Assembly: GCA_036172245.1 (NCBI GenBank)
Contig: JAYWIR010000057.1
Coordinates: 620,001-684,000, forward strand
Direction: 5' to 3'
DNA from: Raillietiella orientalis
Taxonomy: Eukaryota
DNA length: 64,000 nucleotides
Part shown: positions 3,001 through 48,917 of the stretch, piece by piece
How positions within the stretch are numbered: the stretch's first letter is position 1
Layout of the letters: each line of letters starts with the position of its first letter
Notes under the pieces: model-generated
Databases searched by the model: none
What the model was told of the DNA's origin: nothing
Seen by the model: the letters and a program-made list of their open reading frames with translations, nothing else
Made by a program: the position numbers and the translations under genes

Positions 3001-3299
3001 GCAATTTCGGGCGAGGACGATATGTTGTCGAGTACAAGCCGCTCGTCTCTCAGGCATAAGATTACCCATAGCGTAGCAGATGCACCGGAAGATGTATCCA
3101 GGCAACGGGGTGAAGCGAAGGATTGCCTCGATATTGATACTTGTTTGTTGCATTATGGGTACGTAATGATTAGGGGTTAACTGACTAAATCGGGGTAGAG
3201 AATAGTTGAGAAAAAGAGGTGGTACACAGAGTGGGAGCGCTCAGTGCATGTAGGTACTTTTTGTATCCGGGTAAAATTAAACAAATCCCCGAAGGGATC

Positions 3300-14900: not shown

Positions 14901-15368
14901 TCCCGGGGGAAGCCTTTAATTCCCGAGCACCGCTCTTGGAGCCGGCTGTCCCACGGCTGAGGCGACCCGGGAAGGCAAGCAAGGAGAGAAACAGAGGTAG
15001 GTGGAAGGGGAGGGGCAGATCCCATGGGGGTACCCCTTGCGCTCCCTTCCTGTTGGGGAGATCCCGGAATTCCGTCTCTCCACAGGAGGAAGTGCGTGTG
15101 CGCTTCCCCCTGGGGAGGAAGTCGACGAACTCCCGCGGGAGGGAGAATCGTCCCCGGGACGAACACAAAGGCCTTCAGGCCCGATAGCCTTGGTGAACCA
15201 AGAGGAGGAGGACGTGACTCCCCTCTGTTCCTCCTGAGCTGCCCCCAGAGGCGAGGGGGGTTGCAATGGCTCCAAGTGCGCGCTCGACCTCATGCCGAGC
15301 GGACGCCCCAGGAAGCAGTGCCGCTGACCTCCGTCTACGCCCAGGTGTCCTGGGAGCACACCGATACG

Positions 15369-15492
15369 ATGGACCAGAGAGGCTGCTTCTTCCTGGTGGC
15401 TCTCCTCGCCCTGGCCCTCTGCGCCACTGCTCAGGGTGTGCCCTCCCGAAAGCTGCCCTTCAATGGAAGCATCTACGGCAAGAGATCACGAG
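15369..15492 (+). CDS. SIFa: SIFamide-family neuropeptide precursor, coding exon 1 (signal peptide, VPSRKLPFNGSIY, GKR)
   Basis: ATG at 15369: MDQRGCFFLVALLALALCATAQG-VPSRKLPFNGSIY-GKR-SR. The RKxPFNGSI core is the SIFamide signature and GKR is the amidation/dibasic cleavage signal. Phase-1 donor G|GTGAGT at 15493. An upstream acceptor (CTGAC branch ... CCCAG|G at 15344) suggests a 5'-UTR intron. Confidence 0.93.
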
Positions 15493-15567
15493 GTGAGTAA
15501 GAAGGTGGGCTCAAGAGGGGAGGGATCGCGCCCCGTCTGCCCCCTCAACGGCCCTTCCCCCTTCCAG

Positions 15568-15668
15568 ACGCCACCGACGAGTCCTCCCGCCTGCTCATGT
15601 GCGAGGTAACCGTCGCAATGTGCACGTCCCGGTTTCCGGGACTCTTCGCACGCCTCCGGGATAGGTAG
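15568..15668 (+). CDS. SIFa: SIFamide-family precursor, coding exon 2 (Cys-containing precursor-related peptide)
   Basis: A 75-nt intron ends CCCTTCCCCCTTCCAG|AC. The in-frame join gives DATDESSRLLMCEVTVAMCTSRFPGLFARLRDR*; the MCEx5C..F two-cysteine motif is typical of SIFamide precursor C-termini. Confidence 0.9.
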
Positions 15669-15928
15669 ACGGCGGTGGCGGCGGCGCCCCCGATGCCCGG
15701 ATGGGGCGCCCTCCACACCCAGCCCCTCTCCGGCCCCCTCTTCTGCGCCGCCGTCCTCCTCCCGGTTCTCCGCGGGCCGCGGTCCCGGAAGGAGGGCATG
15801 GGTCGGGGAGGGTACGCTGTGCGCTTTCTCCCGCCCGCAGGAACGCGCGGCCCTGGACTTGGGAAGAGTCCCGGCCCCGTGCTGCAATTGGGAGCTCGGG
15901 AGAGGGCGGGGAGCGCTTCTGTGTCGTG

Positions 15929-15934
15929 AATAAA
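15929..15934 (+). promoter_or_regulatory. candidate polyadenylation signal of the SIFamide-family gene
   Basis: AATAAA about 260 nt after the stop codon, in an otherwise very GC-rich stretch. Confidence 0.55.
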
Positions 15935-18900
15935 GGGATGCAGGAAGGCGCGGCTCTAGCAAAAGGTCGGGAGGGGGACTGAGGGGGCAAAAGAGCAAGA
16001 AGTCCCAAGGAAATTTTCCCCGAGCTACGCCCCTCTCGAGCCTCGTTCCCGACGTGGTTCTGGGAGAGGGCCAGACAAGGGGGAAGGGGCCAGGAGGGAG
16101 GATGATCCTGATGGGCCCTGAGGTCCCCGTGCATCCCAAGGGAGCATTCGCTCTCCTGAGCGCTCCTTCCCTGAGAGGACCCTGAGGGCTCCGGAGTTCC
16201 CAGTCAGAGGACCCCTGCCCTGACACTCTCGGTTTCTTCTCCGAGGGGGAAGCAGATAGACATCCCAGGGCATCTCAAGGGGCCGCCACTTCTCCTGAAA
16301 TGACGACCACCTCCCAGCAGAGGGCAGTCGACATTCTCACCCAATGAGCTCCAGGAGGGTGCTGCGCCCTCGGGAAAGGGGGTCGGCGGGGGTAGGTTTC
16401 TTCCTTCAGGTGGGCGCGGGAATAGAGCCATCAGTAGGAGAGTGAAAGTGGCGTATCGAAGGGGAGGAAACTTGGGGCAGAGAGGTTCGACTCGTTGCCG
16501 GGAGACGGCGCACCGCTTCCTTCCGGGAACCCCGGCTCTGTGCCGTTTCTCGGCGTTCCTCTGGCAACGAGTTCCGCCCTCGGAGGCCGGCGAAAAGGAT
16601 GGGCAGACTCTCCGCTTGCGTCCACCCTCCGCTCTCGGGCAGGATGGATCACCTCCGCTCCGCCTGATCCCGGAATGTCGAGGTCTAGGAGTCGCGTCCT
16701 CGCAGGCACGGTCACCCAAGCCTCGGACATCCGGAATCCGCGTCTCCGACCCTGACTCTGACTCCCGCAGTCTAGGCCCTCCTCTTGCGCCTCCGGGGGT
16801 CGTCGAGGAGCCCGCTTCGTGGACCCCCGCCTCCCTGGGTGCCTGCAGGAACGCGCCCGCGTTCTCCGCAGCGGAGGCTGAGGACTATCAGGGACGGCGG
16901 CCACCTGCCTCGTGGGACCCGTAGGGTCGTGGAGAGAAGGGAAGCCACGCCCGGCCACAGCGTGCGGACGCCTCGGGGGCTTCTTTTGGCTGACGGCTGC
17001 AGACCCCGGACCTGGCCCACGAGAGGTGGAGCGGTCCTGCCACTGCTTCCAGCGGATGAAGAGCGCGGAGGTTCCTGAGGACCGGAAATGCCCGGACCCT
17101 GCGCGTCCCTGTAGCTCTGCGACAAGGAGCCATCAGATGACCTTAGGAGGACAGGCGAAACGTGGCGCCTGAGTTCATTTTCCCTGCCGGTTTTTTCCGT
17201 GGCCTTTCCGTGCGTAAGGCAAGAAGTCGCGAGGACGCCCGACCCCAGCTGGTCCTTGGAGCGACCCAGGAAGACGGAGGATGTCGCGGTAAGGTAGGGA
17301 CCAGTCGGGGTCCCTCGCCATCCCGAAAGCGGGTTTCGGAGTAGCTCCGCATTCCGAGACCACCACTCCACCTTCCAAATGCAAGAAAACGAACTTCCTC
17401 CCTCCCTCCGTTCCCCCATTGGGTGCGGAATCCCAGTTCTGTTCGCGGCACTAGGCGTGTCCGACACGGACGGGGTCTTTCCCGAAGTGGCTGCCGATGC
17501 GGGTGCTCTCCTGATCCGTTCCGCATTCGGCAGAGGCGGAAGGGCTGCCCTCGGGTACTCGCCCGCTGCCCTGCTCGGATTTCCAGAGGAATCCCCGCCA
17601 GCTTTTTGATCTACCCCAGGAGCGTGGGCGGTCGCCCGCTCCGGCAGCGGCGTCCGGAGTGATTGGGAATAACATGGGACGTGCGGGGACTCCGCAACGA
17701 GCGGGGGAGGCAGAAGAAGTACCCCGGCATGCCTATTTGGTCCCAATGGATCGATACGGGGTCGGCGGCGGTGTTTCCTTCCGGGTTCCCAGAGCCCCAT
17801 CCACCATCTCCGCAAGCGCTCGTCTCGCAGTCCGCGGAAGACTTCGGCGCTGCAGTCGCCTACGGGGAAGGAGGTGGGTGTTGAAATGTGGTGACCTCAG
17901 CTATCCCCGTCCTCCCTCTTCTCCTTAACTGCGGCCCCGGAAGGCCCAAGGGAACGCATGGAGGGTGCGACCGCGAGCGCAGAGTCATCCCGAGTTAGGA
18001 CGTCCATCCTCTTGAATCCGCCCGCCTCCACCAAACCGGAAGGTCGTGAGCGGAAGGGCCATAGCCGTAGAGGGCCAGCCCTGTACCCAATGACCATACA
18101 TGCCTACCTCTACCTTCTTTGGTGCCAGAGCTACTTTCAGTCATCGCTGAGCCTTGATGGCGCCCCCAAAGGGGCTTCAGAGAACCGCTCGCTGCGCGCA
18201 GCAAGCAGTCTCGCGTTTCCATCTCTGGGAAGAAAACTTTTGCAGCAGGTCCTCCTCACAGGAATCCACCCAGTCTCCCTTCTGGGTTCTCCCTCTCGTT
18301 CTTCTCCCTCCCAATCCTCGCATCCGAAAATCAGGAACCTCAGTGCCACGAGGAGGACCTCCGAGAGAGACCTGCAGGCTTTCCGCTGCGTGCCGCCCGT
18401 CCCTCCGGCAACTCCGGGGCCTTCCCACAAGGTCGCCGGAATCAATTCGAGAGTCCCACGAAGGTGAATAAATCCCCATCGGTGGGCCCTGCCCGGAGGA
18501 GAAGTCCCCTCCGCGAAATTGCAAGGAGGTGCCGCTTCACTCTCGATGCGCTGAGGACGCGGCCTCGCCTAAAGCGGAAGAGATGCTGCTGCACCGTCCG
18601 GACTGGACTGGAATCTTCGGCGTTTCATCCAGAAGGAGATGGGATGAGACAGCTTCAGGCGGATGAGAGGGCATGGAGAGGACGGTATCAGGACGCAGCG
18701 ACAGGTGTCCCTGGATTCGGCGAGGAAGAGAAGTTTGAGATGAGGTTGCAGCTTCTCCCGGGAGGCTGCAGCTCCGAGAAAGAAATGAGAGAGCCGACGA
18801 CTCGAAGAGTCCTCACGTCGGCTGTGTGCTTTCTCTTCCCTCCCCCCTTGACGGATGACCGAAGGGAGGGACAAATCCCATCGCGTGGCAGGGCTTCCTG

Positions 18901-36256: not shown

Positions 36257-36936
36257 TCAAATGCTGTAAATCAGGTGCTCGGGTAAGAGGAAAGCCGCTA
36301 TGCGGTACAGCGTCTGTGCGTACCAGTGGACCCAGATCTGGCGGGATTGGGGCTGCTGCTTCCAGCTGCCGAATATCTCCCAGATCGCCACGTACCAGCG
36401 CACGGGGAAGAACGCCCAGTGCGCCAGCCTGTGATTATCGACCACCGCGTAGCACGACGCCGCGATGTTGTTGACCAGGATCGATCCCTTCCTGGTCAGG
36501 GGGGCGTGGAATCCCACTTTAAAGTTCGCCCAAGTCCTGGTCACCTTCTCGAGAGCGAGTTTCCCGTCGGTTTCCACCAGTAGGGAATCGTTCACTTTCA
36601 CGTTCAAGGAGAATGTCACGATCAGGTTTCGCTGAACGTCCTCGAAATCGCCACTGCAATTTCTAAAGGAATCACTGGGACATATGTAAATCAAGTGACC
36701 CGGGGTCAAACTGATTCTTTTGTTCTTGACAGTCTGTATCGTCACAAAAGTCCTTGTCTCATTTTGACTGCTGTCCAGGATAAGGATCACCTTGCTGTAC
36801 TCCGTCTTGCCGTGATCGTTCACCGCCAGGACCTCTTCGCCGACCGCCACCTCCGAGATCCTCTTCGCCCCGTCTTTCGTGGTCACGAAGGAATCCGCTG
36901 AGAAGCATCCGCTGTGCTTGGATGATATCATCGAAT
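36257..36936 (-). CDS. hh: hedgehog exon 3 (GCF autocleavage site, Hint domain, sterol-recognition region)
   Basis: Acceptor CCTCTCCTTCCAG|AT, phase-compatible with exon 2 (KS-D-SMISSKHSG|CF). Contains the catalytic Cys (36905-36907), ILILD, LTPGHL (TxxH), APLTRKGSILVN, ASCYA, LAHWAFFPVR and VHWYAQTLY, then a stop at 36257. Spliced CDS 345+262+680 = 1287 nt. Confidence 0.97.
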
Positions 36937-39826
36937 CTGGAAGGAGAGGGAAGATACTTGAAACGGGCAAGCGAACCGTATTCAGAAATTCCTTCCGGAT
37001 GCGCGCGCGGGTGGGGGGTCGCATCCTGCCACCCTTTTTTTTTGCGCCCAATCAGGAACCTCCTTCCGGGAAGGGCACCGAGAAACTTTGCGCGAGAGAG
37101 GCGGCGTCCAGCATGCCAAAGCGCCAAAGCGCGATTGAGAAGAGGAAGACGGCAAGGGTTCTCGACCCCTCCGTAAGCGCCCGCCGTGCCACTCGGCACC
37201 TCAAGTCCCGGAGATGACTCGGGCAGAAGCAGAGGAAGCAACCCCCCATTCAACCTAAACTCGGGCTACCAGGACTGTTCGCAGGGCAGATCTCTGGAGC
37301 AGATCAGCGCAGAGAAGCTCACGGGACGCAGGAAATCCCGGAATTCCACGAAGGCACCGTCAGGACTTCTTTAAGGGAACGCGGAGGGAGAACCCATCGT
37401 TGGGGATCGGCATGTGGAACCCGAGAAGAAGCACCCAATGGGAAGCATCTAAGAATACCAACGAACTTATCCCGACCTGTTTCGGGAGCCGGGAACCACC
37501 CGCCCATCTCTTGGAGGGACCCTCGGAGTCCTCGCCGAGTGGAGTCCAATCGGTGCTCTTCTCTGTCGCTGACTGCGAGGTTCCCCACCGAATTGTCCCG
37601 CGGGCACGCCAGGAAAGCAACCTCTGTCTTCCTTTCGAGATGGCCGCCTCAGTGCGCAACCCCAGGGGAATTTCCCCGGCCGGCGGCTGTCCAGGAACGG
37701 CTCTCCGCGTGCCGCCGCCCGCGTACCCGCCGCCTGGGAGGAAGAGGAATTTCCCGCCGGGACGTAATTGGAAAGCGCTCGCTCGCGAGTGGGCGAGGTC
37801 AGCGCGCGGCGGTTGTGTGCGCGGTCAGCGTCGGGGGCAGGAGGTCCCCCCTCCCGAAAGGAAGCCTCCGATTCCGATAGGATTCCCGGAGCAGGAGGTG
37901 GAGAGAAACCCTCTCGGAATTAGCCTCGGGAGGCCACGAACAAACCGCAAATCTCTGTTTTCGTAATTCGACCAGTAGGAGACCGGCGACCCGTCCTTCG
38001 GGCCCTCTCGGCGGGATGCGCGCCGGGCCGAGCGAGCCGGAGAACCTCCCCATAAATCAAAGCTGTCGGCAGGCGACTGTAAATTAAAGAGCGAGCGCTG
38101 CACCCTCGAGCGATTGGTGGAGGAAGGAGACTGCGCTCCTTCGGCGACCACGGGGAATTCGGTCCGTCGCTAACCGTGGGCTCTCGATCTGATAGCAACG
38201 GCGGACAGCCCCTGCCGCAAGGGAGCTTCAGGGGTGCTGGGAGTGACGAGCACAAAGACCGAGGCGCTCGTCGCAGAGTTGCGGCGTTAGGTGAGCAAAG
38301 GAGCGCCAGCGGTCTCCTCTGGGAGAAGGAGGAGGGCTCCAAGGCATCGGTCGGTTGGCGTGCGCCGCGAGGCTTCTCCTGCAGTCCGAGCGCGAAGCCG
38401 CCGTCACAGCGGCGAGCTTCACGAAACATTCGGCCTTTCTTCCAGGAAGAGCGCACCCAGACGCTGCCGGACCAGATGCAGCGCTTTTCTTCCAACCGTC
38501 CGGGTTTTCGGCGAGTTCCCGCACCTGCAGAGCTCGAACACCACCGGCATGGAAAAATCTTTCCGTGTAGTACTTTCAGGATCGGCACTGCGTCTCGGTA
38601 GGTGGCTCCAGGGAGATGCAGAGGAGGAGAAAGTTCGGACGCGTCCAGAGGCGCTCCCCTGGAGGAGGAGGCCGCCGCCCCCTTCTGGGGTTGCACAACC
38701 GGGTGTTCCAGGACGGCGAGTTCCACTGCTGTGCTCGGATCTGAATACAGATCTCCTTGAGCCACCTTCTTGGTCTTCACCTGCGCCTCCCACGCAAATT
38801 CCAAATCGAAGCGCTTTTTTTTTTTGCCTTTGTACGTGGGATTCGCAGATGCTTCTTGGACCACTTCTTGACACCACCCGCAAGTGTTCTCTTCTGTTGT
38901 CGACCGCGCTGCCTTCCTCGCACGGCGCGCGTCGATGCGCTTCCCGGAGGTGGGACGCTGCCAAGTGCTGACAGCTCTGGAGGTGCGAAGTGGCATCGGA
39001 TGGACCGTTCCACGGTTCCGTCACCTCGGAGGTTTTCCATCTGCCGACAGCAAGGCGCAAGGCGCCCTCGCCGGCGAGGATTCGCAGATTCCAGAAGAAA
39101 CCGGCGCTGCATCGACCCGTGCTTCAGCTCTTGAGACCACCAGCTGCCCGTGGTGGTCACTGTTCCAAGGAGATCGCCTCTCCTCCAAGAAGCAAACAAA
39201 GGAAATTCCTGCCGAGAGAGCCTAAGATCTGCATGCGTTCAAAGGATCAGTCCAGGGTGATGGAGGCTGCTCCTCATCACTCTTTGCACGCACCCGTAAG
39301 CCCACCAGCACACGCGCAGGGACATGTTCCCCATTTCACGCGTTCTCAATCAAAAGTCCTTCCCGTGAGAGACTCCCCCCCCCCCTCCAACGCACAGATC
39401 TTTTCCCGCACGTGGAAAACGCCCGAGGCGGGGAAAGGAGGGGTTCCAGGGGTCGTTCGGCTTCCGGGAGGCACGCTTGGATCCCGGAGGGCACCGCGCA
39501 ATCCATCAATGAGTAGGCGTGCAAGTCGTGTTTCTTTTCGCGTTCGGTCCACTCCCTTTTTGTTGCTGTCGTCGTTGTTCTTGTTCTTGCTTCTCCCGGA
39601 ACAACGGGCTCGTCCAGCGAAAGAAAGTTCGCCGCGGAGATTACCGTCGCGGAAGAGAATGGAAATCTTTTGCGCGGACAGGAAGAGAACCACCACCACC
39701 TGCCGAGCTGCGTGCGTGCGTTCGTGCCGACCGCGCGGTGCGCGCGCGCATGCCCGCCGCCTCTTCCACCATCCCTCTCCTCCCCCCCCCCTCCAAAGAC
39801 GTGCACGCCCAACTTTTGGTACTTAC

Positions 39827-40088
39827 CAGACTTCACAGAGCAGTGTATGTGAGAACGAGACTCGTAATAAACCCAATCGAATCCAGCCTCCACGGCCAAC
39901 CTGGCCAGGAGGCCGTACTTCGCCCGGTCCCTGTCCGACGTGAGTATATCGACAGCCCGGCCTTCGTAATGCAAAGAGTTCTTATAGTGATGGCCGTCTT
40001 CGTCCCATCCTTCGATCACTCTTAGCCTAACCCCAGGCCACTGATTCATCACAGATACTGCCAAAGTATTCAACTTCTCCAGGCATCT
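39827..40088 (-). CDS. hh: hedgehog exon 2 (Hedge domain core)
   Basis: Acceptor TTTTTCCAG|AGA; encodes [87 protein letters not shown]; phase-1 donor TCTG|GTAAGT. Length 262 nt, at the intron positions conserved in hedgehog genes. Confidence 0.98.
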
Positions 40089-42379
40089 CTGGAAAAACAT
40101 TCCCAATTACTACATGGAGTCAGGTGGTGGGGAATCAGGAGAGGAAGGAAGTGAGGAGGGGGGGAGAGTAGCGCACGTTTCCGGCAGCGCGATGAACGCG
40201 CGGTCTCTTCCTCAGACCGAGTTGACGGCTGCTGCAGCGGGGGGCGCACTCGCAGTAGCTCTTCTCTACCCAAAGACCACACGGATCCCCCCCGAACCCT
40301 CTCTTAGGAACGGAAGCGACGGACAGCTCCGCGAGGAAACGGTACGGAGGAGGCCGTGCAAGAAGAGATCGCTGAGGAACCGCGTAGATTAGCAACGCTC
40401 CCTCGGGTGCCCTGAGGACGCGCCGTCCGTCGCACCCTCGTGCGCTCCCTGAGGTCGCATGGGTCCCGCCTGCCTCCGTCGGGGAATTTCGTTCCCTCCC
40501 CCCGGTGACCCTCAGTTTAGAGAAGAATCCAAAAGGCGGGAGTCTTGCAGGTGGAAGTATGGTCGTTTCCTCCGGACACGTGTCGCGGCGAGACGCATCC
40601 CGAGGAGGCACTGTTGGGGGCACCCTCGGGATCCCGTGGCATCCCTTCCCTTGATCCCGTGTCCAGCACGCCGTTCCTCTCCGGGAACTTATCAGACTCG
40701 TGAATCCAGGAAGGACTCCGGATGAAGGAGTCCGTTCCTCTAACATTTGGCAGGAAACCCCGGAGGAAGCCCTCGCCGCTGGATGTCTCCGCAAGGGACC
40801 CGGAAAAGATCCGTTCCTGGAATTTCTTTCCCGGAGGGAACTCACAAGGGAGCCGCTCCTCGTTTCCTCCTCTGAAGGTAGCCCTGAAGGGGCAAGAAGT
40901 GACGGGAGGCGATGTCCTCGCCCGAGACGAAAGATTTCGGAGTCTCCGGAAGTTTGTTCCCGGGGTCTCTCCCTCCGCGAGATTCAGTCGCTCATGAGTG
41001 CAACCAGGGAAACAACAAGTGGAGAGGGTGCGTCCTCATAGTGGCCGAGCGGCGGAGACCACCCTCCGGCCCTCTTCTTGCGCCGGAACGCCCGGTCGGC
41101 GTTTTCCAGGGACGTCTCGAGGGAGTCCTTGCGGGCGAGGAAAGGCGCAAGCCGGGGGCCCAAGAGAGCCTCTTCTGGCCCCTCGCTAGATTCCAGGCCC
41201 CCCTTGGTTCTGTCCTCGCAGTACAGGCGTCGTAGGATGAATGCGCTGCAGCCCTTCTCAATCGCCCTCTCCGTGCGCGCCCCCTTGGGCGGAAGGCGAC
41301 GCGCACCCCTTACCTCACCCTAGTTCGAGCGGAAGCAGCGCTGCAGCACCTCTTCGGGGAAACGTCCCTAGGGAGGTGCCTCCGACCGGACGGCGTTTCC
41401 AAGCAACCGCGCCAGCGAGCGGTCCTCCTCCGCCGAAAAAGAAAGGACTTTTCTCCTTCTTCCTCTTCATCTCTTCTTCTTCCTCCCCGCTCTGAGGAGG
41501 GCAGCAGCGAGCGAGCGCGTGCGTAAGTGAGCGCGCGCGCGCGCGTGTTTTCGCACAGCCTGGAGATCGTAGACCCACCCGACTGCTCCCCACCGCACAC
41601 CCGCCGCACCGACAGCGGGGCGCTGAGAATTTATGTGCTTTTAAGGACGTGCTTGCGGGCGACTCGTTGCCTAGGCGCCTCGCCGATCCCACGCGGCGGC
41701 GGCGGCTTCGGCGGCGGCGGCGGTGGAGGGGGAGGAATCCAGCACGGAGCGTGACCAGTGTCCTGAGCGCGCGATCCTCCGAGGGGGCGTGGACTCTCTG
41801 CGCTCCGTCAGCATTTTTGGCGCGGGAGGCTGAGCGCTGCCGAGCAGCGGCTCTCCGCTCTGCTGCAGTCCTCGCCTTCCCTCCCTCCGATTGGAGCGCG
41901 CGCATTCCTCCAACCTCGGGATCGGCGCTCCGGCGGCAGGCGCGTTCCGCTCCGGCGACTGCGCCTGGACCTCGGGACGGGGAAGGAGGGGAGCGAAGAA
42001 GATCGCGGCGTCAGCGGGAGGCAGCGCAGACTAGCGGCTTCGCGGAAACTCTGCATCCGGCGCTCCCGGGAGGAGCGCGGCTTTTCTCCTCCCAGAGGAG
42101 GGAGATCGACCAGGCGCACCCTCGCCCGGGGTGGGTCACACACCCACGCGACCCCGTTTCTCTTTCACTCCCGGCGGCCCTTCTGAACGGGACGGATAAA
42201 AGAAGCGCGGGTTCCGCCCAAGAAGGTGAGCCTCAGAGTGGGGAAGCACTCTGCAGCTGGAGACCCCTTCTCCTCTCCACGAAATCCGGGAATTCTCCCC
42301 GCTCGCCCACCCACACACCTTTAAAAAGTCTCCATGACCTGCCTTTCTTATCTTTCCCGTGAGGGCCTGTAAGGCCTCC

Positions 42380-42645
42380 CTGTGCCTTGAAGATACGACC
42401 CCACCGCGCACCCGCGCAGCTTCGAACGCGCGGGGGATGCTGCGGTTTTCGGGAATGAAAGAGGGATGGCACGAGAATGGGGGTGTCCTATCGCCTCAAA
42501 GGTCACATCCCCGAACTCTGCGACTCTCCGGACGGTTACCACGGCAGGTAGCCACGGGAGCGAAAAGTACGCTACCTTTTTAGACGTCCCAAGAGACGAA
42601 TGGACGAACCCATGGAGTGTGGGAGAGGGGTGGCCTGCGTGCCGC
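42380..42645 (+). repeat. dispersed repeat family B (~265 bp), copy in hh intron 1
   Basis: Reverse complement of 49708-49968 over its length (CCCCACCGCGCACCCG..CAGCTTCGAACGCGCGGG..GGGATGCTGC..TTTTCGGGAATGAAAG..CGAACTCTGCGACTCTCCGGACGGTTACCACGG..GAGAGGGGTGGCCTGCGTGCC). The ORF track shows matching peptides (MLRFSGMKEGWHEN vs MLQFSGMKAGWHEN). Confidence 0.88.
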
Positions 42646-43123
42646 GCGGGCCTCCTTTGTCTCCACTTCACGGGGAGGGGAACTCTAGTGGCATCTAGCG
42701 TCGTCTCCGGCACCTTCACCACAGCCGTCGCAGCGCGAGAGCTCCTTTCTACGGAGCCGCGGTGATTCCGTCCTGCGTGTCCTCTTCCCTCCACCCCCAT
42801 TCCCCCCTCCCTGCGAACGGAGGTGCTAGAAGGAGCAACGAGGCGGGCAGCAGCGTAGAGGCGCGCATCTCCACTGCCTCGCAACACGCTGCCACGCTAG
42901 AAGAGGGGGGGGGGGGACGCTCCCGAGATTCGCATCAAGAGCACTGGGGGACTCTCCCTCGGGATCCGACGTTCCGACCGGTTGGTTTCCAGCTGACCAG
43001 AGATTTCCCTCCGTCCGCCCGACCTTCCCGCAGCGCTCTTCACGAAGGCGAGACAAAGCTGCGGCTGCCGGAAGAGCGGGGAGGGCGAGGATTCTGCTCC
43101 TCGCAGAACGCGGATTTCTGAAT

Positions 43124-43163
43124 GGCCGCCGCCGCCGTCGCCGCCGCCGCCGCCGCCGCCGCC
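43124..43163. repeat. (GCC)n trinucleotide repeat in hh intron 1
   Basis: GCC x4, GTC, then further GCC units; a shorter interrupted (CGG)n tract lies at ~41693-41723. Confidence 0.88.
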
Positions 43164-46100
43164 CGGCTCGCGATACAAAAGGGCGCGCGGCCCGCGCGCT
43201 CCGCGCGGCTCGGCGGCGAGCACCCTGCACTCCCATCGATCTGGGAGGCTCGCTCGCTCCGCTCCGGAGCGTCTAGCCCGAGGCTGGAATTCTCTCAAGA
43301 GGGATGTGGTAGTGTTAGGTAATTAGAAAAGGTCATGTTTGCAAACCGACCTGTTGTTAATGGACAAAACTGTGCGGTGGGTCGCACAATGAACGGGGCA
43401 ACGGCTGAAAACCGACAGGCAGAGGCAGGGGAGGAGGGAAAAATAAAGAAAAAAAAAAACAGAGGAGGGAAGACGGGGAGCGCGTTTGACCAAGGGAGGT
43501 GACTTCCCACTGTCAATGAGAGTGCCGTGAAGAGAAAAGGAGGGACCCTCCTGCTTTCTTTTGATTCCGTCCTGCCCATTGTCGTTCCTCAGAAATCCTT
43601 GAATGGGGGGGAAGCTTCGGACGTCACCTGGCGCATCCAGAAAAGTACCCCGCTCTTCGAAGAGAGCGATGCTTCTTCCCGTGAGATCGATGTTTGCGAT
43701 CCGACGGATCGGACGGCGCGCCCTTCCGCCGACCGGGATGCTCCCGTCACCCCTGGAACGAGGAAGCGCGAAGCGACCAGGACCTGGACCCTATTTCCTG
43801 GTTCCTGGGCAAAACGCAGCCGCCCGCTCGGCCGAGAGAGGTAGCGAAAACGCGCCGGCGTCTCCGCCCGCGATGGCCGTTCCGCCCGAGACAACGGAAG
43901 AGGAGCCCACTGGCGCGTTTCTCCCGGAGACATCCTCTCGAAGGAGGCATTGCTTCTTGAGGAGAGAAAGGACGGCTCGGGGGAGCTTGCTGAACCGTAT
44001 GCCGGACCCACTTCTTCAAGATTGGGTACAACCGATCGGTCATGTCCACTCTGGCGTAAGCACTGCTGCGCGGAAATTTGACCTTCGGTTCCTCGATCCC
44101 ATACCGATATTCCCGAGTTGGAGGCCGTGTGATTGCGGTCTTATGGCCGATGAATGGGTGCGCCGTGGGTTTCAGGTCCCCCCGCAGGATGCCGATGGTT
44201 GGCCTGTTCCGGCTGCCGCGGCAATGGTGGAGGCTGGATGCCCCCGTTGACCCCCCGGGGTTGGAATCAAGGAGTCCTTCGAGGGTCCCCTCCGGTTATA
44301 CAAATAGCGATATTCCTGACATTCCCTGAAACCAGTCGTTAACGAGTCAGCAGCCGCTTAGCAACGTGGTGGTTTATTTTTCCGGTTCCCGATGATGGAG
44401 TGTCTGTCGCCCCGGGACGCGAGGAGTTTGCTTCTACTGTCTTTCAGTCTCACCACCCTGGGCCTGCGGCTGACTGCCAGGACGCTCCCTCCCACCACCC
44501 ACCTCGACGTCCCTGCCAAAATACGCGGTGTTAGTTGGTTCCGCGCTCTTGCACGCAACTAGGTGTGGTGGTGATGGCGGCGTCCCATGCTCCGCACCGG
44601 AGACTGCCCGGATCTTTGGTCCGCCGTCTACGATTCCCGCCTGATCGGCTGGGACGGCGACGCCGGGGAACTTGGAACGATCGCGACCGTCCCGGCCGGC
44701 CGCGCCCCGAAGAGCAATCGCGGCAGGAGCGAGCGCTTGTCGCTGCCGCGAGTAGCCCTCGGAGCGAAAACGCTCCGACCGAAATGACCGATAACGAACT
44801 GCGACTTGTCCACCGTGTGCCGCATCAGGAGTGCCAGAAAACAGAAGCGAGCTACATAGCTGACGGCAACCGGGTCCGTTGCTCCCTCCCAGAAAGATGC
44901 CTCGTCTCCAGCACCACTCAGTCGCCGTTTCTGTACCCGACTGCGACGGGTGCCGTGTCGCCAGCCGAACGCCAGGGTTGGGGGGAGAGGGAATCGAAAG
45001 GAGGACGCAGCGATCGCCGGGAACGGCGACTCTGACCCCTCTCGAGGTCAGTCAGTGCGTCATGCGCGCTCCTGTAGTGATGGGCGACGTCCTAGCCGAC
45101 TCCGGGGAGCGCCCGCAGCTTCCCGATTGAGCGAACGGGACGGGACGCAGCTCCCAGCAAAAAAGGACTGGCGAAAATCGGGCAGGCTCTCGAGGGGAGA
45201 AGCGAAACACCAAAACGCAGTCCTGAAACTTCTTGTAGACGGAACGGGAGGGTTTCTTCCCGTCGAAGTCCCGATCGACGGCCCCTTCCCTTCTCCAGGG
45301 GGGACCCTGTGAGTGAGCACGGGTCCAGCATCCCCCCTCCAGTCCGGGAACGCCGGGCCCCTCTCCCCGTAGGTGAACGAGACCCACGAAGCACACATCG
45401 GGATGTCACCCAGTGGCCAGCTGAGTTCCGCTCGGTTCCGAAAGACCAGCTCGCACGGTGCGGCCTTCACCGATCGAGATAACCGACCGCATTACGGTAC
45501 AGCCCATTGTCTCCCAAACGTCACTGGGTCTTTTCCCTCCTCCTTGGTATAATTTATGCTTCTGCTCTTCCGCTTCGTTTTCCCTTTTTATTAGTCGAAT
45601 TGCTTTCCGGGAATTCATGGGAACCTCGCCGGCGAACCGGACGCTTCATCCCGAAAAAGACAGACGCTCCTGGGAACAGGAGGGCTTCCCTTTTTCTCTT
45701 CCTTCCCAGAAGAGTTCCACTCTTCCGGGTAGCGGCGCGGCGCGGCGCGAGGGCGGCTTCCGCACCTCTTCAACGATCCCGGACGCGGTGTCTCGTCGTC
45801 GCATCCCGGCCTGCAGCGCGAACGCGCGCAGCCGAGGACCGACCGAGACGCGCGCGCGCACAATGCGAGCGCGCTGCCGTTCCTCCGCATAAATCTTCTT
45901 CGCTCCCGGCAGGGTCCACGGAGGAATCCTCAACAAGGCGCCGATGAATAAGTGCGCGGGCAATTACGCTCGTTCCCGATTCACAATGCTGACACTTCGC
46001 CGAGCTGCAAGTGTGGGATATTTCAACATTCTAGCAAGAAGAGGAATGCGGCTGAAGATGGACGGGGAACTGTGGGACACCTCGACTTTCCCAACATCAT

Positions 46101-47403
46101 AAACTCAGTGGGGGCTGTAAATCTCTTGGTTTTATGAGTGCTGGGTGATGCGACCGCTTCTTTCTCTGCGTCTCCGAGGAAAGAAGGAATGGCAGCGCCG
46201 CGCTGCCGACGTGTCGTGGGCAGGAGGAAGCACAATAGAATTTCTTTCTTTCCCCTGTCCTGTCTTTTCCCAGGGTCCGCGGGGCACACCGGCGATGAAA
46301 CGTGAGCGGCTCTCGAGAGATGGTGTCGCGACACCGTTGCGGGCGGCAGGAAAGCCTCCCGGTCTTCGCCCAGCACCCGGCAGCGCAAGGCCTCTTGGGC
46401 AATCCGGACGGAGGCAATTCGGACTGGGAATGAAAACGAAAGGGAAAGAATTTTTTCGCCTTCCCATTCTTCTAGCTCGCAATGTGGCGACCACGGAAGG
46501 CCTCATTCAAGTGCACGTCTGGAAGCGCCGCTTCGGAGAGAGGGGGAGGGGAGAGGGACGTCTGCACAAAGCCCCTGCGGAGTGAAGCTTGGCCTGACCC
46601 GGTTCCGTTCCAGGAGGAGGGTCGAAAAGGCTCCTTCGAATCTGAGGTTCCGTTCCAGAGAACCACTCGGTCAAGGGCCGTGATCTGGGATCCCTTCTCC
46701 ATTTTCCTCCAGCTATCTTGGATGGTCACTGCATTTGCAAACAAAACAAAAAAATTGCCCTCCAGCAGAAACCAAGGAGATCGGCAAGGATGAGTTTCCT
46801 GCCCATGCGGTGACCTCGTGTTCAACCTCCTCAGCGCAAGTGCCCTGGGAACGTAGAGAGTGGCTTCTGCCAAGATGCACAACTGCGATGAATCGACTGA
46901 GAGAATCCCCCCCCTCCTGCGTTTTGAGGGTGTTTGACCCGGGAATATCACTGCCCGCTGTCAACCCGAGCGTCCAGGAGTCTTAGGCGTGCTTCTCCAC
47001 GAACCGGTCTTCCTGAGGTTACTGAAAACCGGTGATGCCCACGTTCATCCGTCGCGAGGAGCCAGGAGACACCGCGGCCCACACGTCTTCTCGACCGCGA
47101 GGGCCACTCCGCTGAGGAAAAGACAGAGGTGAACACCGAAACCTCGCAGGCAGTCCGAAAGAGAGACCACCGAGGTTTCTTCGTAGTCTTCGACGCTGCG
47201 CCTTCCGCGGGTACGGCAGATTTTCACACCCTCGGGTGAGGCCCGACTTCATTTCGGGGCCCTCCTTCTGCAGCCCACGCTCGCGCTCCGTTCGGGGCGG
47301 ATGCCGCCACATCCCGCCACGGCCGCAGCCGAGCCACCACGCAGTTCCCGAACGCTGTTTCGAAAACCTCTGCTTCCATGGCCACACGAGTACGGTAACT
47401 CGT

Positions 47404-47424
47404 TCTCTCTCTCTCTCTCTCTCT
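47404..47424. repeat. (CT)n / GAGA microsatellite in hh intron 1
   Basis: About 10 TC units. Confidence 0.9.
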
Positions 47425-48572
47425 GGGACGTCGCCATGTTGCATCGCTGCACGGCGTGGACTCTGAGCGCGAGCCGCATCTCCCCTCAAAAGATTCTCCG
47501 AGGAAGGCGACGGCGCGAATATGAACGAGCGAACGGAGTCTTCTGGGAGCCGATGGCCTCTCTGACCGAAGCCCCAGCCCACCCTTACTGGAGGGAAAGA
47601 GGGCATGTTTCAATAATGGTTCCTACCCACAGCATCCACGAAGGAATAGGCGGGCACCAGCCCCTCAGTTCCCAACCAGCTCACACTTCAAACAGGAGGG
47701 CGAGAAAATTCCGGGAGCTCCGTCGGAAATGTGGTTGGCTAGGGAGCCCGACGGGGGGTACGGAGTTGACCGAGTATGCCCGCAAACCAGGTGGGGACAC
47801 GCAAAGATGCAAGCGGGCGGCGACGCAGGAGAAGACATCTGGAAAACCAGACCCATGGCGGGCTTACTCTTGAGGTTAAGGAAGTGTCAAGGACGGGGAT
47901 ACCCCCAGTGCTCCATGACCACGCCCTCTGCGGAACTAGAACTGGAGAGAGAACCTCTGCGTTCCGAGAAGCGCGCTCTTGCTGTTCGCTGCTTCGCAAC
48001 GGGAGCGGAGCGAACACTCTCAAGGTCCTCCCTCGGAAGGGGAGACTACCCGGCCAAGGAAGGAACTCCGGAGGACTCCCCAGCGTTCTGCAGTTGCGTC
48101 CTTTCACTGAGGGCGCCGTGGTCGCCGTTGGTTTCGCGGAAGCAGGCGCACCCATCGAGAAACTCCGCCATGCACCTCCCTCCTTCCCAACGCGGTTGTG
48201 CAGCCCGTCCTGAGGGTGCGACGGGGAGCGAGGGCGAATGTCGCGTTGCTGGGTAACCTCCCCACCCGCTCCCCGATGCGAAACTCCAGCGGTGCGCTTC
48301 GGGGACGACGCTAAAGGTCTCACGTGGAAATGACCCGGCCACCCCCTGCGGTGGGAGCAGCGGAGAAGGCGAACGCTCCGTGAACCGAGTTTTTGCAAGC
48401 CGACCTTCCCAAGCCGGCCCCGTAGGGGTCGGTAGGAAAACTACTCTCCCTCGTCCCCGGACGCACCCCATAGGTGTGGAAGAGAAATCCGCTCTTGCCA
48501 GGACCCGTGGTCCATTCAGGGAGGCACGGGAAGGGTCGAAAGGGGGAGGGGCAGAAAGAGAGTGGGACTTAC

Positions 48573-48917
48573 CTTCGTCATGACTCTGTCCGCCCCCGTA
48601 CCTTCCTCGTCCCTGAAGATGATGTCGTCGTTGTAGTTGGGGACGAGTCCCCGGAAGCGGGGGTCGGTCCTGGCTATCCTGCCTTCCGCCAGGCTGCTGG
48701 CACCTACGGATTGTTCGGGCACGTTGGGGACGTGCTGTTTGAGCACGAGGGGGGTGAGGTTCTTGGGGTGCCGCCGGCTGATCCCTCGCTTCCCGGGCCC
48801 GCAGGGCATGGCGGCCCTCGACACCAGCAACAAGACAAGCAACGATCTGGTCAAGATCCTCTGGCATGCGTTCGCTATCTTCCAGAAGTTTCTTGTCATT
48901 TCCCGGCGAGGCGGCAT
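48573..48917 (-). CDS. hh: hedgehog exon 1 (signal peptide and start of Hedge/Hh-N domain)
   Basis: Encodes [115 protein letters not shown]: hydrophobic signal, then the CGPG N-terminus typical of hedgehogs. Ends at phase-0 donor AAG|GTAAGT. The start ATG could be 48917 or 48899; the ORF track start at 48950 is a GTG. Confidence 0.96.

Follow-up and report, generated by a model that had tools for sequence, protein, structure and literature searches.

An intact SIFamide-family precursor gene predicted to encode a Tyr-amide neuropeptide

Results

A two-exon gene for a 74-aa precursor

The plus strand of the window, that is, the whole 64-kb stretch of DNA analyzed, carries a two-exon gene with a spliced product of 74 aa, in which the frame, the start context, and the splice sites are intact. 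The coding part of exon 1 (15369..15492; 124 nt, covering residues 1-41 and the first base of codon 42) contains the signal peptide, the peptide, and GKR, and its ATG at 15369 sits in the sequence ACGATGG, which places A at -3 and G at +4. The intron (15493..15567; 75 nt, GT-AG) lies in phase 1, two codons and one base after GKR. Its donor, GAG/GTGAGTAAG at 15492/15493, conforms to consensus, and its acceptor, CCCCTTCCAG/AC at 15567/15568, is rich in pyrimidines; the frame resumes there in phase 1. The coding part of exon 2 (15568..15668) specifies a spacer and a tail with two cysteines, C53 (codon 15600-15602) and C60 (codon 15621-15623), and ends in the stop codon TAG at 15666-15668. A putative 3' UTR (15669..15934) would extend to the AATAAA at 15929-15934, which is the single AATAAA or ATTAAA hexamer between 15301 and 16300. 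On the 5' side, a CAG at 15342-15344 is a candidate splice acceptor, and the segment that follows it (15345..15368) may be part of the 5' UTR.

In the list of open reading frames, exon 1 is hidden inside a 158-aa ORF (15024-15500) that starts from an in-frame ATG farther upstream. Retention of the intron would bring in a TAA in frame at 15498-15500 and stop the product after ...GKRSRGE, so that the peptide itself does not depend on splicing. The original prediction of an intact 74-aa precursor, split by a 75-nt GT-AG intron, followed by an AATAAA, and buried in the 158-aa ORF, was confirmed in the sequence. Minus-strand ORFs across the locus (15486-16274 and others) matched no Pfam family, are typical of GC-rich DNA, and were set aside.

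Precursor organization and the encoded peptide

From its N terminus, the precursor consists of MDQRG, a hydrophobic stretch, ...ATAQG, the peptide VPSRKLPFNGSIY, GKR, a 13-residue spacer, C-E-V-T-V-A-M-C, and a short tail. The predicted signal peptide (15369..15437; residues 1-23, or 1-21) has its hydrophobic core at residues 5-17, with Kyte-Doolittle 11-residue means of up to 3.11, and directly precedes the peptide, a layout also found in the database precursors of Blattella, Hetaerina, and Schistocerca described below. The peptide (15438..15476) could start two residues earlier, at Q22, and is followed by GKR (15477..15485), which provides the Gly amide donor and a Lys-Arg convertase site. 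Two signal peptidase sites fit the -3/-1 rule, A-T-A/Q after A21 and A-Q-G/V after G23; the mature peptide may accordingly begin with Q-G-V-P-S or with V-P-S, and the V-P-S N terminus originally proposed is not established. The same caveat about the cleavage site is raised for SIFamides generally in the text of PMC7179676.

The core and processing site read R-K-L-P-F-N-G-S-I-Y-G-K-R. Measured against [RK][RK]-x-P-F-N-G-S-I-F, the core keeps 8 of 10 canonical residues and is followed by an unaltered GKR. It departs at two positions, with Leu for Pro and Tyr for the terminal Phe, the residue that names the family. Both the KLP core and the Tyr, which the original prediction had singled out, are borne out by the window sequence, where the terminal codon is TAC (15474-15476). 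The same decamer is still filed as SIFa in the text of PMC4770511. Translated in six frames, the window contains the nine-residue pattern [FYW]NG[ST][IMLV][FYW]G[KR][KR] a single time. The pattern was absent from all 300 first-order Markov simulations of the window, in which an eight-residue version appeared once, and a chance origin of the motif was rejected on the grounds that none of the 300 simulated windows with the same dinucleotide statistics contained it.

Membership in the SIFamide family

On gene structure, precursor architecture, and sequence, we place the gene in the arthropod SIFamide family. A phmmer search with the precursor against 1,835,955,588 representative proteins returned seven matches at E<=1e-3, four of them SIFamide-family precursors of 73-106 aa with E values from 1.9e-5 to 8.2e-4. 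These are a hypothetical protein of Blattella germanica (P0004, E 1.9e-5) ending in ...GVPFRRLPFNGSMY-GKR (...RRLPFNGSMY-GKR); a Hetaerina americana precursor (P0005, E 9.7e-5) ending in ...SYRKPPFNGSIF-GKR (...RKPPFNGSIF-GKR); a Tachypleus tridentatus precursor with two peptide copies, one SIF and one SIY (P0008, E 4.6e-4); and an entry named "SMYamide [Schistocerca gregaria]" (P0009, E 8.2e-4). The aligned regions extend from query residue 6 to residues 64-66 and take in both exons; since they include the Cys tail encoded by exon 2, they support the splice model. Two further matches, P0007 (630 aa) and P0010 (3260 aa), lie outside the four family precursors counted here, and P0006, a nematode multicopy PFSGG[MVL]Y-GKR precursor matched over 15 residues only, was set aside.

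In a five-row alignment, M1, N32, G33, G37, K38, R39, C53, E54, and C60 are invariant, and every one of the 11 rows in a larger precursor alignment has the C-E-x5-C pattern. Together with the phmmer E values and the intron phase, these conserved residues uphold the family assignment of the original prediction, which was made from the sequence alone. That prediction had also remarked on RF in the tail where WF is usual. The window does have Arg where Trp occurs in the four database precursors; the Trp is not universal, however, being missing from four of the six SIFamide precursors that we rebuilt or read from metagenome contigs.

A Pfam search with the precursor returned no family, there being no Pfam model that matches the SIFamide family, and a word-indexed protein search gave two candidates, neither of which was scored. 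The first ESM Atlas matches to exon 1 (0.87-0.89) were all short neuropeptide precursors, at values below the tool's evidence level. A 74-aa arthropod cluster is among the ESM Atlas matches.

Related loci in metagenome contigs

A scan of metagenome contigs with the five-row alignment yielded 20 loci, all of which were translated. The canonical [RK]KPPFNGSIF-GKR is encoded at nine of the 20 and ...YRRLPFNGSMY-GKR at seven. One locus of SMYamide type, L001, ends instead in ...YRRLPFNGSIY-GKR (one of eight SMYamide-type contigs), and L011 encodes ...RKLPFNGSIF-GKR. The remaining two, L019 and L020 (ISFNGSIYGKS), have no dibasic site and were discarded as chance matches.

Introns were surveyed in 13 of the 20 contigs, after exclusion of the two chance loci and five near-duplicates. 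A phase-1 G/GT donor lies two to seven codons after GKR in nine of the 13, and at L004 and L017 the intron position is identical to that in the window. One contig (L012) has no intron, and three of the 13 could not be judged. At six loci a downstream exon with a C-E/Q-x5-C tail joins in frame to give a full precursor. The phase-1 intron after GKR, as a feature of the family, is derived here from these contigs rather than taken from a published criterion.

Comparison with known peptides

The closest printed peptide is NNVRKLPFNGSIYa, given in PMC4770511 as the SIFamide of the campodeid dipluran Lepidocampa weberi. Its C-terminal decamer, RKLPFNGSIY-amide, is identical to that of the window, including Leu for Pro and Tyr for Phe, so that the last 10 of 14 residues agree and the preceding three are NNV in L. 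weberi versus VPS in the window; this comparison covers the printed peptide, as distinct from the signal peptide, spacer, and tail of the precursor. According to the main text of that paper, the substitutions are shared, among the non-pterygote hexapods studied, only with Campodea augens, for which the main text states the sharing and does not print the sequence. A single SIFa transcript is tabulated there for L. weberi, and two to three SIFa precursors are noted in a few non-pterygote hexapods. The main text of published papers, searched exclusive of supplements, did not contain the exact 13-mer with V-P-S.

Canonical SIFamide precursors (P0005 and the contig loci L004, L012, L013, L017, and L018) have the same architecture as the window precursor, with one peptide copy, GKR, a spacer, and C-E-x5-C. 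Identity between the Hetaerina and window precursors is 38% over 71 columns. Against the canonical KPP and Phe-amide, the window has KLP and Tyr-amide; against Y-R-K it has S-R-K, with no aromatic residue ahead of the basic pair; and the spacer between GKR and the first Cys has 13 residues, versus 18 in the Hetaerina precursor.

SMYamides (P0004, P0009, and contig loci L001-L003, L005-L007, L009, and L010) resemble the window in having Leu before P-F-N-G and a Tyr-amide, and the Blattella and window sequences share G-V-P-x-R-x-L-P-F-N-G-S-x-Y-G-K-R. The window has Ile where SMYamides have Met (S-I-Y rather than [SA]-M-Y-amide), a trait that L001 alone of the SMYamide-type contigs also shows. 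The intron follows GKR by two codons in the window versus seven in SMYamides, and the window tail starts with C-E-V, like the SIFamides P0005 and L013 and unlike the SMYamides. PMC4237046 treats the SMYamide of locust, termite, and cockroach as a paralog of SIFamide. In the texts of PMC7179676 and bioRxiv 10.1101/2020.09.17.302331 SMYamide occurs alongside a canonical SIFamide gene, and reports of it are confined to Polyneoptera; the latter source places its origin after the divergence of Plecoptera and treats lepidopteran IMFamide as an independent duplication.

A C-terminal SIY followed by GKR, as in the window, also ends the second peptide of the Tachypleus precursor and the peptides of a three-copy precursor of "SIYamides" from the embiopteran R. 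virgo (PMC7179676, whose text gives TYRKPPFNGSIF-NH2 as ancestral for Polyneoptera). The cores in these precursors are otherwise more derived, and they hold three copies in the embiopteran and two in Tachypleus, whereas the window gene has one. The designation of the product as a noncanonical SIYamide stands as far as the predicted Tyr-amide is concerned and is only partly right as a novelty, with the decamer printed in PMC4770511 and SIY endings found in other lineages.

Genomic surroundings

The window is gene-poor, with 55% G+C and a CpG observed/expected ratio of 0.92, and neither a tRNA nor an Rfam scan of it gave a match. When 275 of its ORFs were searched against Pfam (150 long ones and 125 of 250 shorter, less GC-biased ones), only hedgehog matched, and no G-protein-coupled receptor was found among these 275. 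A six-frame pattern search found no second SIFamide-type motif within the 64 kb.

The hedgehog gene lies on the minus strand in three coding exons (from an ATG at 48917 or 48899 to 48573; 40088-39827; 36936-36257). Exon 2 has 1710 protein matches, the best at 89% and named arthropod and vertebrate proteins at 83-87%; the Hint exon has only two, at 35-36% identity. A maximum-likelihood (ML) tree was built from this one gene for 40 hedgehog proteins, among them no dipluran or crustacean sequence. The window protein pairs there, on a long branch, with that of the collembolan Allacma fusca (support 95/88, starred), and it falls outside all 20 of the named winged-insect proteins, those of Periplaneta, Schistocerca, Timema, and Bacillus included. 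With this sampling, the springtail affinity counts as no more than a hint, and the DNA is probably not from a winged insect.

Discussion

We read the locus as a functional SIFamide-family gene that is most likely its lineage's SIFamide ortholog, in a derived Tyr-amide form like that of campodeids, and the window as DNA of a hexapod other than an insect or of a close relative among the Pancrustacea; we put the probability of this reading at roughly 0.6. The gene structure, the similarity to the family, the conserved residues, and the position and phase of the intron are directly supported by the data presented here.

We infer processing, amidation, receptor, and expression from the established processing of such precursors and from the SIFamide family. 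The N-terminal signal peptide would take the 74-aa prepropeptide into the secretory pathway, where signal peptidase would expose the N terminus of the peptide. A prohormone convertase would then cleave after Lys38-Arg39, a carboxypeptidase would trim the two basic residues, and Gly37 would be converted to the C-terminal amide. The predicted products are the mature peptide (QG)VPSRKLPFNGSIY-NH2 and a precursor-related peptide with one Cys53-Cys60 pair. Candidate amidated forms are the 13-mer, a pyroglutamyl 15-mer if cleavage follows A21, and conceivably an 8-mer, LPFNGSIY-NH2, since the Pro next to the basic pair of canonical SIFamide is Leu here. With Tyr for Phe, the amidated residue stays aromatic and gains a hydroxyl group. 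By analogy with SIFamide in Drosophila, the peptide would be released from neurons and act on a SIFamide-type G-protein-coupled receptor; the Drosophila receptor CG10823 is activated by SIFamide (reviewed in PMC3510462). The altered C termini of SMYamide and IMFamide have been argued to mean that affinity for the SIFamide receptor has changed, and a second related receptor has been pointed out in some species (PMC4237046).

We infer orthology from several considerations that have to be weighed against a possible, though rather unlikely, alternative, in which the gene is a paralog, with a canonical SIFamide gene at another genomic site, and is either lineage specific or an early member of the SMYamide line. 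Such a paralog might be expressed in a pattern of its own and perhaps differ in receptor preference, as has been suggested for the SMYamide of cockroach, locust, and termite. The precursor trees speak for it. In an ML tree of 11 precursors, the window groups with four SMYamide rows against six SIFamide rows (97/95, starred), and it does so again in a tree of 12 precursors with Tachypleus as outgroup (97/94, starred) and after removal of the 13 peptide columns (94/93, unstarred). The best single match is also of SMYamide type in both searches, the Blattella precursor in phmmer and L001 among the contigs (tblastn; 62% over exon 1). The shared G-V-P before the core, the Leu for Pro, and the Tyr-amide link the window to the Blattella precursor, and the SIY ending of L001 shows that a gene of SMYamide type can itself carry this C terminus. 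The multiple SIFa precursors of a few non-pterygote hexapods (PMC4770511) point the same way.

These signals are tempered by the behavior of the same data under other treatments. The part after GKR, used by itself, does not group the window with SMYamides; the window branch in the precursor trees is very long (2.0-4.8); and approximately unbiased (AU) tests leave two other positions of the window unrejected, one outside the ten insect rows altogether (p 0.22) and one with the six SIFamides (p 0.14). For these reasons the SMYamide affinity rests on exon 1 and could reflect convergent Pro-to-Leu and Phe-to-Tyr changes together with long-branch attraction. The absence of a second copy within the 64 kb also counts against a paralog. 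We rate a derived ortholog above a paralog because L. weberi has the identical decamer in its only reported SIFa (one transcript in PMC4770511), because the hedgehog tree, in which the window protein falls outside the winged insects, argues against a polyneopteran host, and because SMYamide is reported, in the sources cited above, only from Polyneoptera after the plecopteran split.

It is improbable, on our estimate, that the gene is an ortholog of the SMYamide line rather than a convergently modified SIFamide, with a SIFamide/SMYamide duplication older than the winged insects. Some entognathan hexapods would then have retained the Leu/Tyr-amide branch, whether or not they lost the canonical gene, and the branch would have disappeared repeatedly elsewhere. 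If true, such an ancient line would overturn the published polyneopteran origin of SMYamide after stoneflies diverged.

A silent or decaying copy, whether a young pseudogene or an unexpressed open frame, is very unlikely. The long branch of the precursor, the Arg in place of the Trp of the four database precursors, and a tail that after the second Cys is unlike the others would suit such a copy, but the spacer and tail vary across the family anyway, all invariant columns of the family alignment are kept, and the frame, start context, both splice sites, GKR, both Cys, and the polyadenylation signal are intact. That a base-call or assembly error turned TTC into TAC, and the true peptide ends in ...SIF-amide, is scarcely credible: a single transversion would suffice, but the same Tyr decamer was found independently in the transcriptomes of two campodeid species (PMC4770511), and Tyr accompanies Leu in SMYamide-type genes from several sources.

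The locus is a sound annotation of an intact gene, not a new kind of peptide or a new signaling system. Any claim to novelty is weakened by the printed decamer of campodeid diplurans and by the SIY endings of other lineages. SIFamide is among the most conserved arthropod neuropeptides, so a lineage in which the amidated C-terminal residue has changed offers a natural experiment in ligand-receptor coevolution. The locus supplies a genomic gene model of the Tyr-amide form, with its exons, intron phase, and flanks, for a form that, as far as the literature text shows, had previously been printed only as a transcriptome-derived peptide. Taken with Tachypleus, the embiopteran SIYamides, the SMYamides, and L001, it indicates that the change from Phe to Tyr, often together with that from Pro to Leu, has recurred or persisted in several lineages. 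This is a modest point, of use for annotation and for picking species for receptor pharmacology.

Genomic setting of the SIFamide-family gene

The composition of the window is unusual for an arthropod genome. Its G+C content is 55%, with individual 4-kb stretches reaching 65%, and the observed/expected CpG ratio across it is 0.92. Hundreds of its long ORFs are GC-driven and belong to no Pfam family, and a Pfam scan of 275 of its ORFs returned no transposon domains; short tandem repeats number just two in the whole window. A three-exon hedgehog gene lies on the minus strand at 36257-48917. Its first exon starts at an ATG, either 48917 or 48899, and ends at 48573; the second spans 40088-39827 and the third 36936-36257, and the two introns measure about 8.5 kb and 2.9 kb. 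In this gene Pfam matched HH_signal (E-values of 2.6e-28 and 9.2e-46) as well as Hint (E-value of 5.4e-52). Identity of the Hint domain to each of the compared proteins is low, at about 30-37%.

Related precursors and C-terminal variants

Among the protein matches to the window's precursor was a 172-aa precursor of the nematode Ancylostoma ceylanicum (P0006), which carries x-P-F-S-G-G-[MVL]-Y-GKR in about eight copies. The match (E 1e-4) is confined to the peptide/GKR part and, although the two share an aromatic-amide ending, the nematode precursor probably belongs to another family. A further match, from the horseshoe crab Tachypleus tridentatus (XP_076322111.1, 106 aa), is labeled merely as an uncharacterized protein in the database; here, two peptides, KRPTFNGSIF-GKR and IRRPSLNGSIY-GKR, precede one Cys tail.

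Metagenome contigs provided other combinations of these residues. The stretch at 1045-1146 of contig locus L001 is a first exon of the SMYamide type. It shares its signal peptide and P-Y-R-R-L-P-F-N-G core with seven sibling contigs and differs from them in its ending, which is SIY-GKR where theirs is SMY-GKR. The SIY ending thus also occurs inside the SMYamide line. Positions 3001-3042 of another contig locus, L011 (47% G+C), encode a peptide ending in SEPRKLPFNGSIF-GKR, in which, as read from exon 1 only, the Leu-for-Pro change occurs together with the canonical Phe. This combination may represent an intermediate state.
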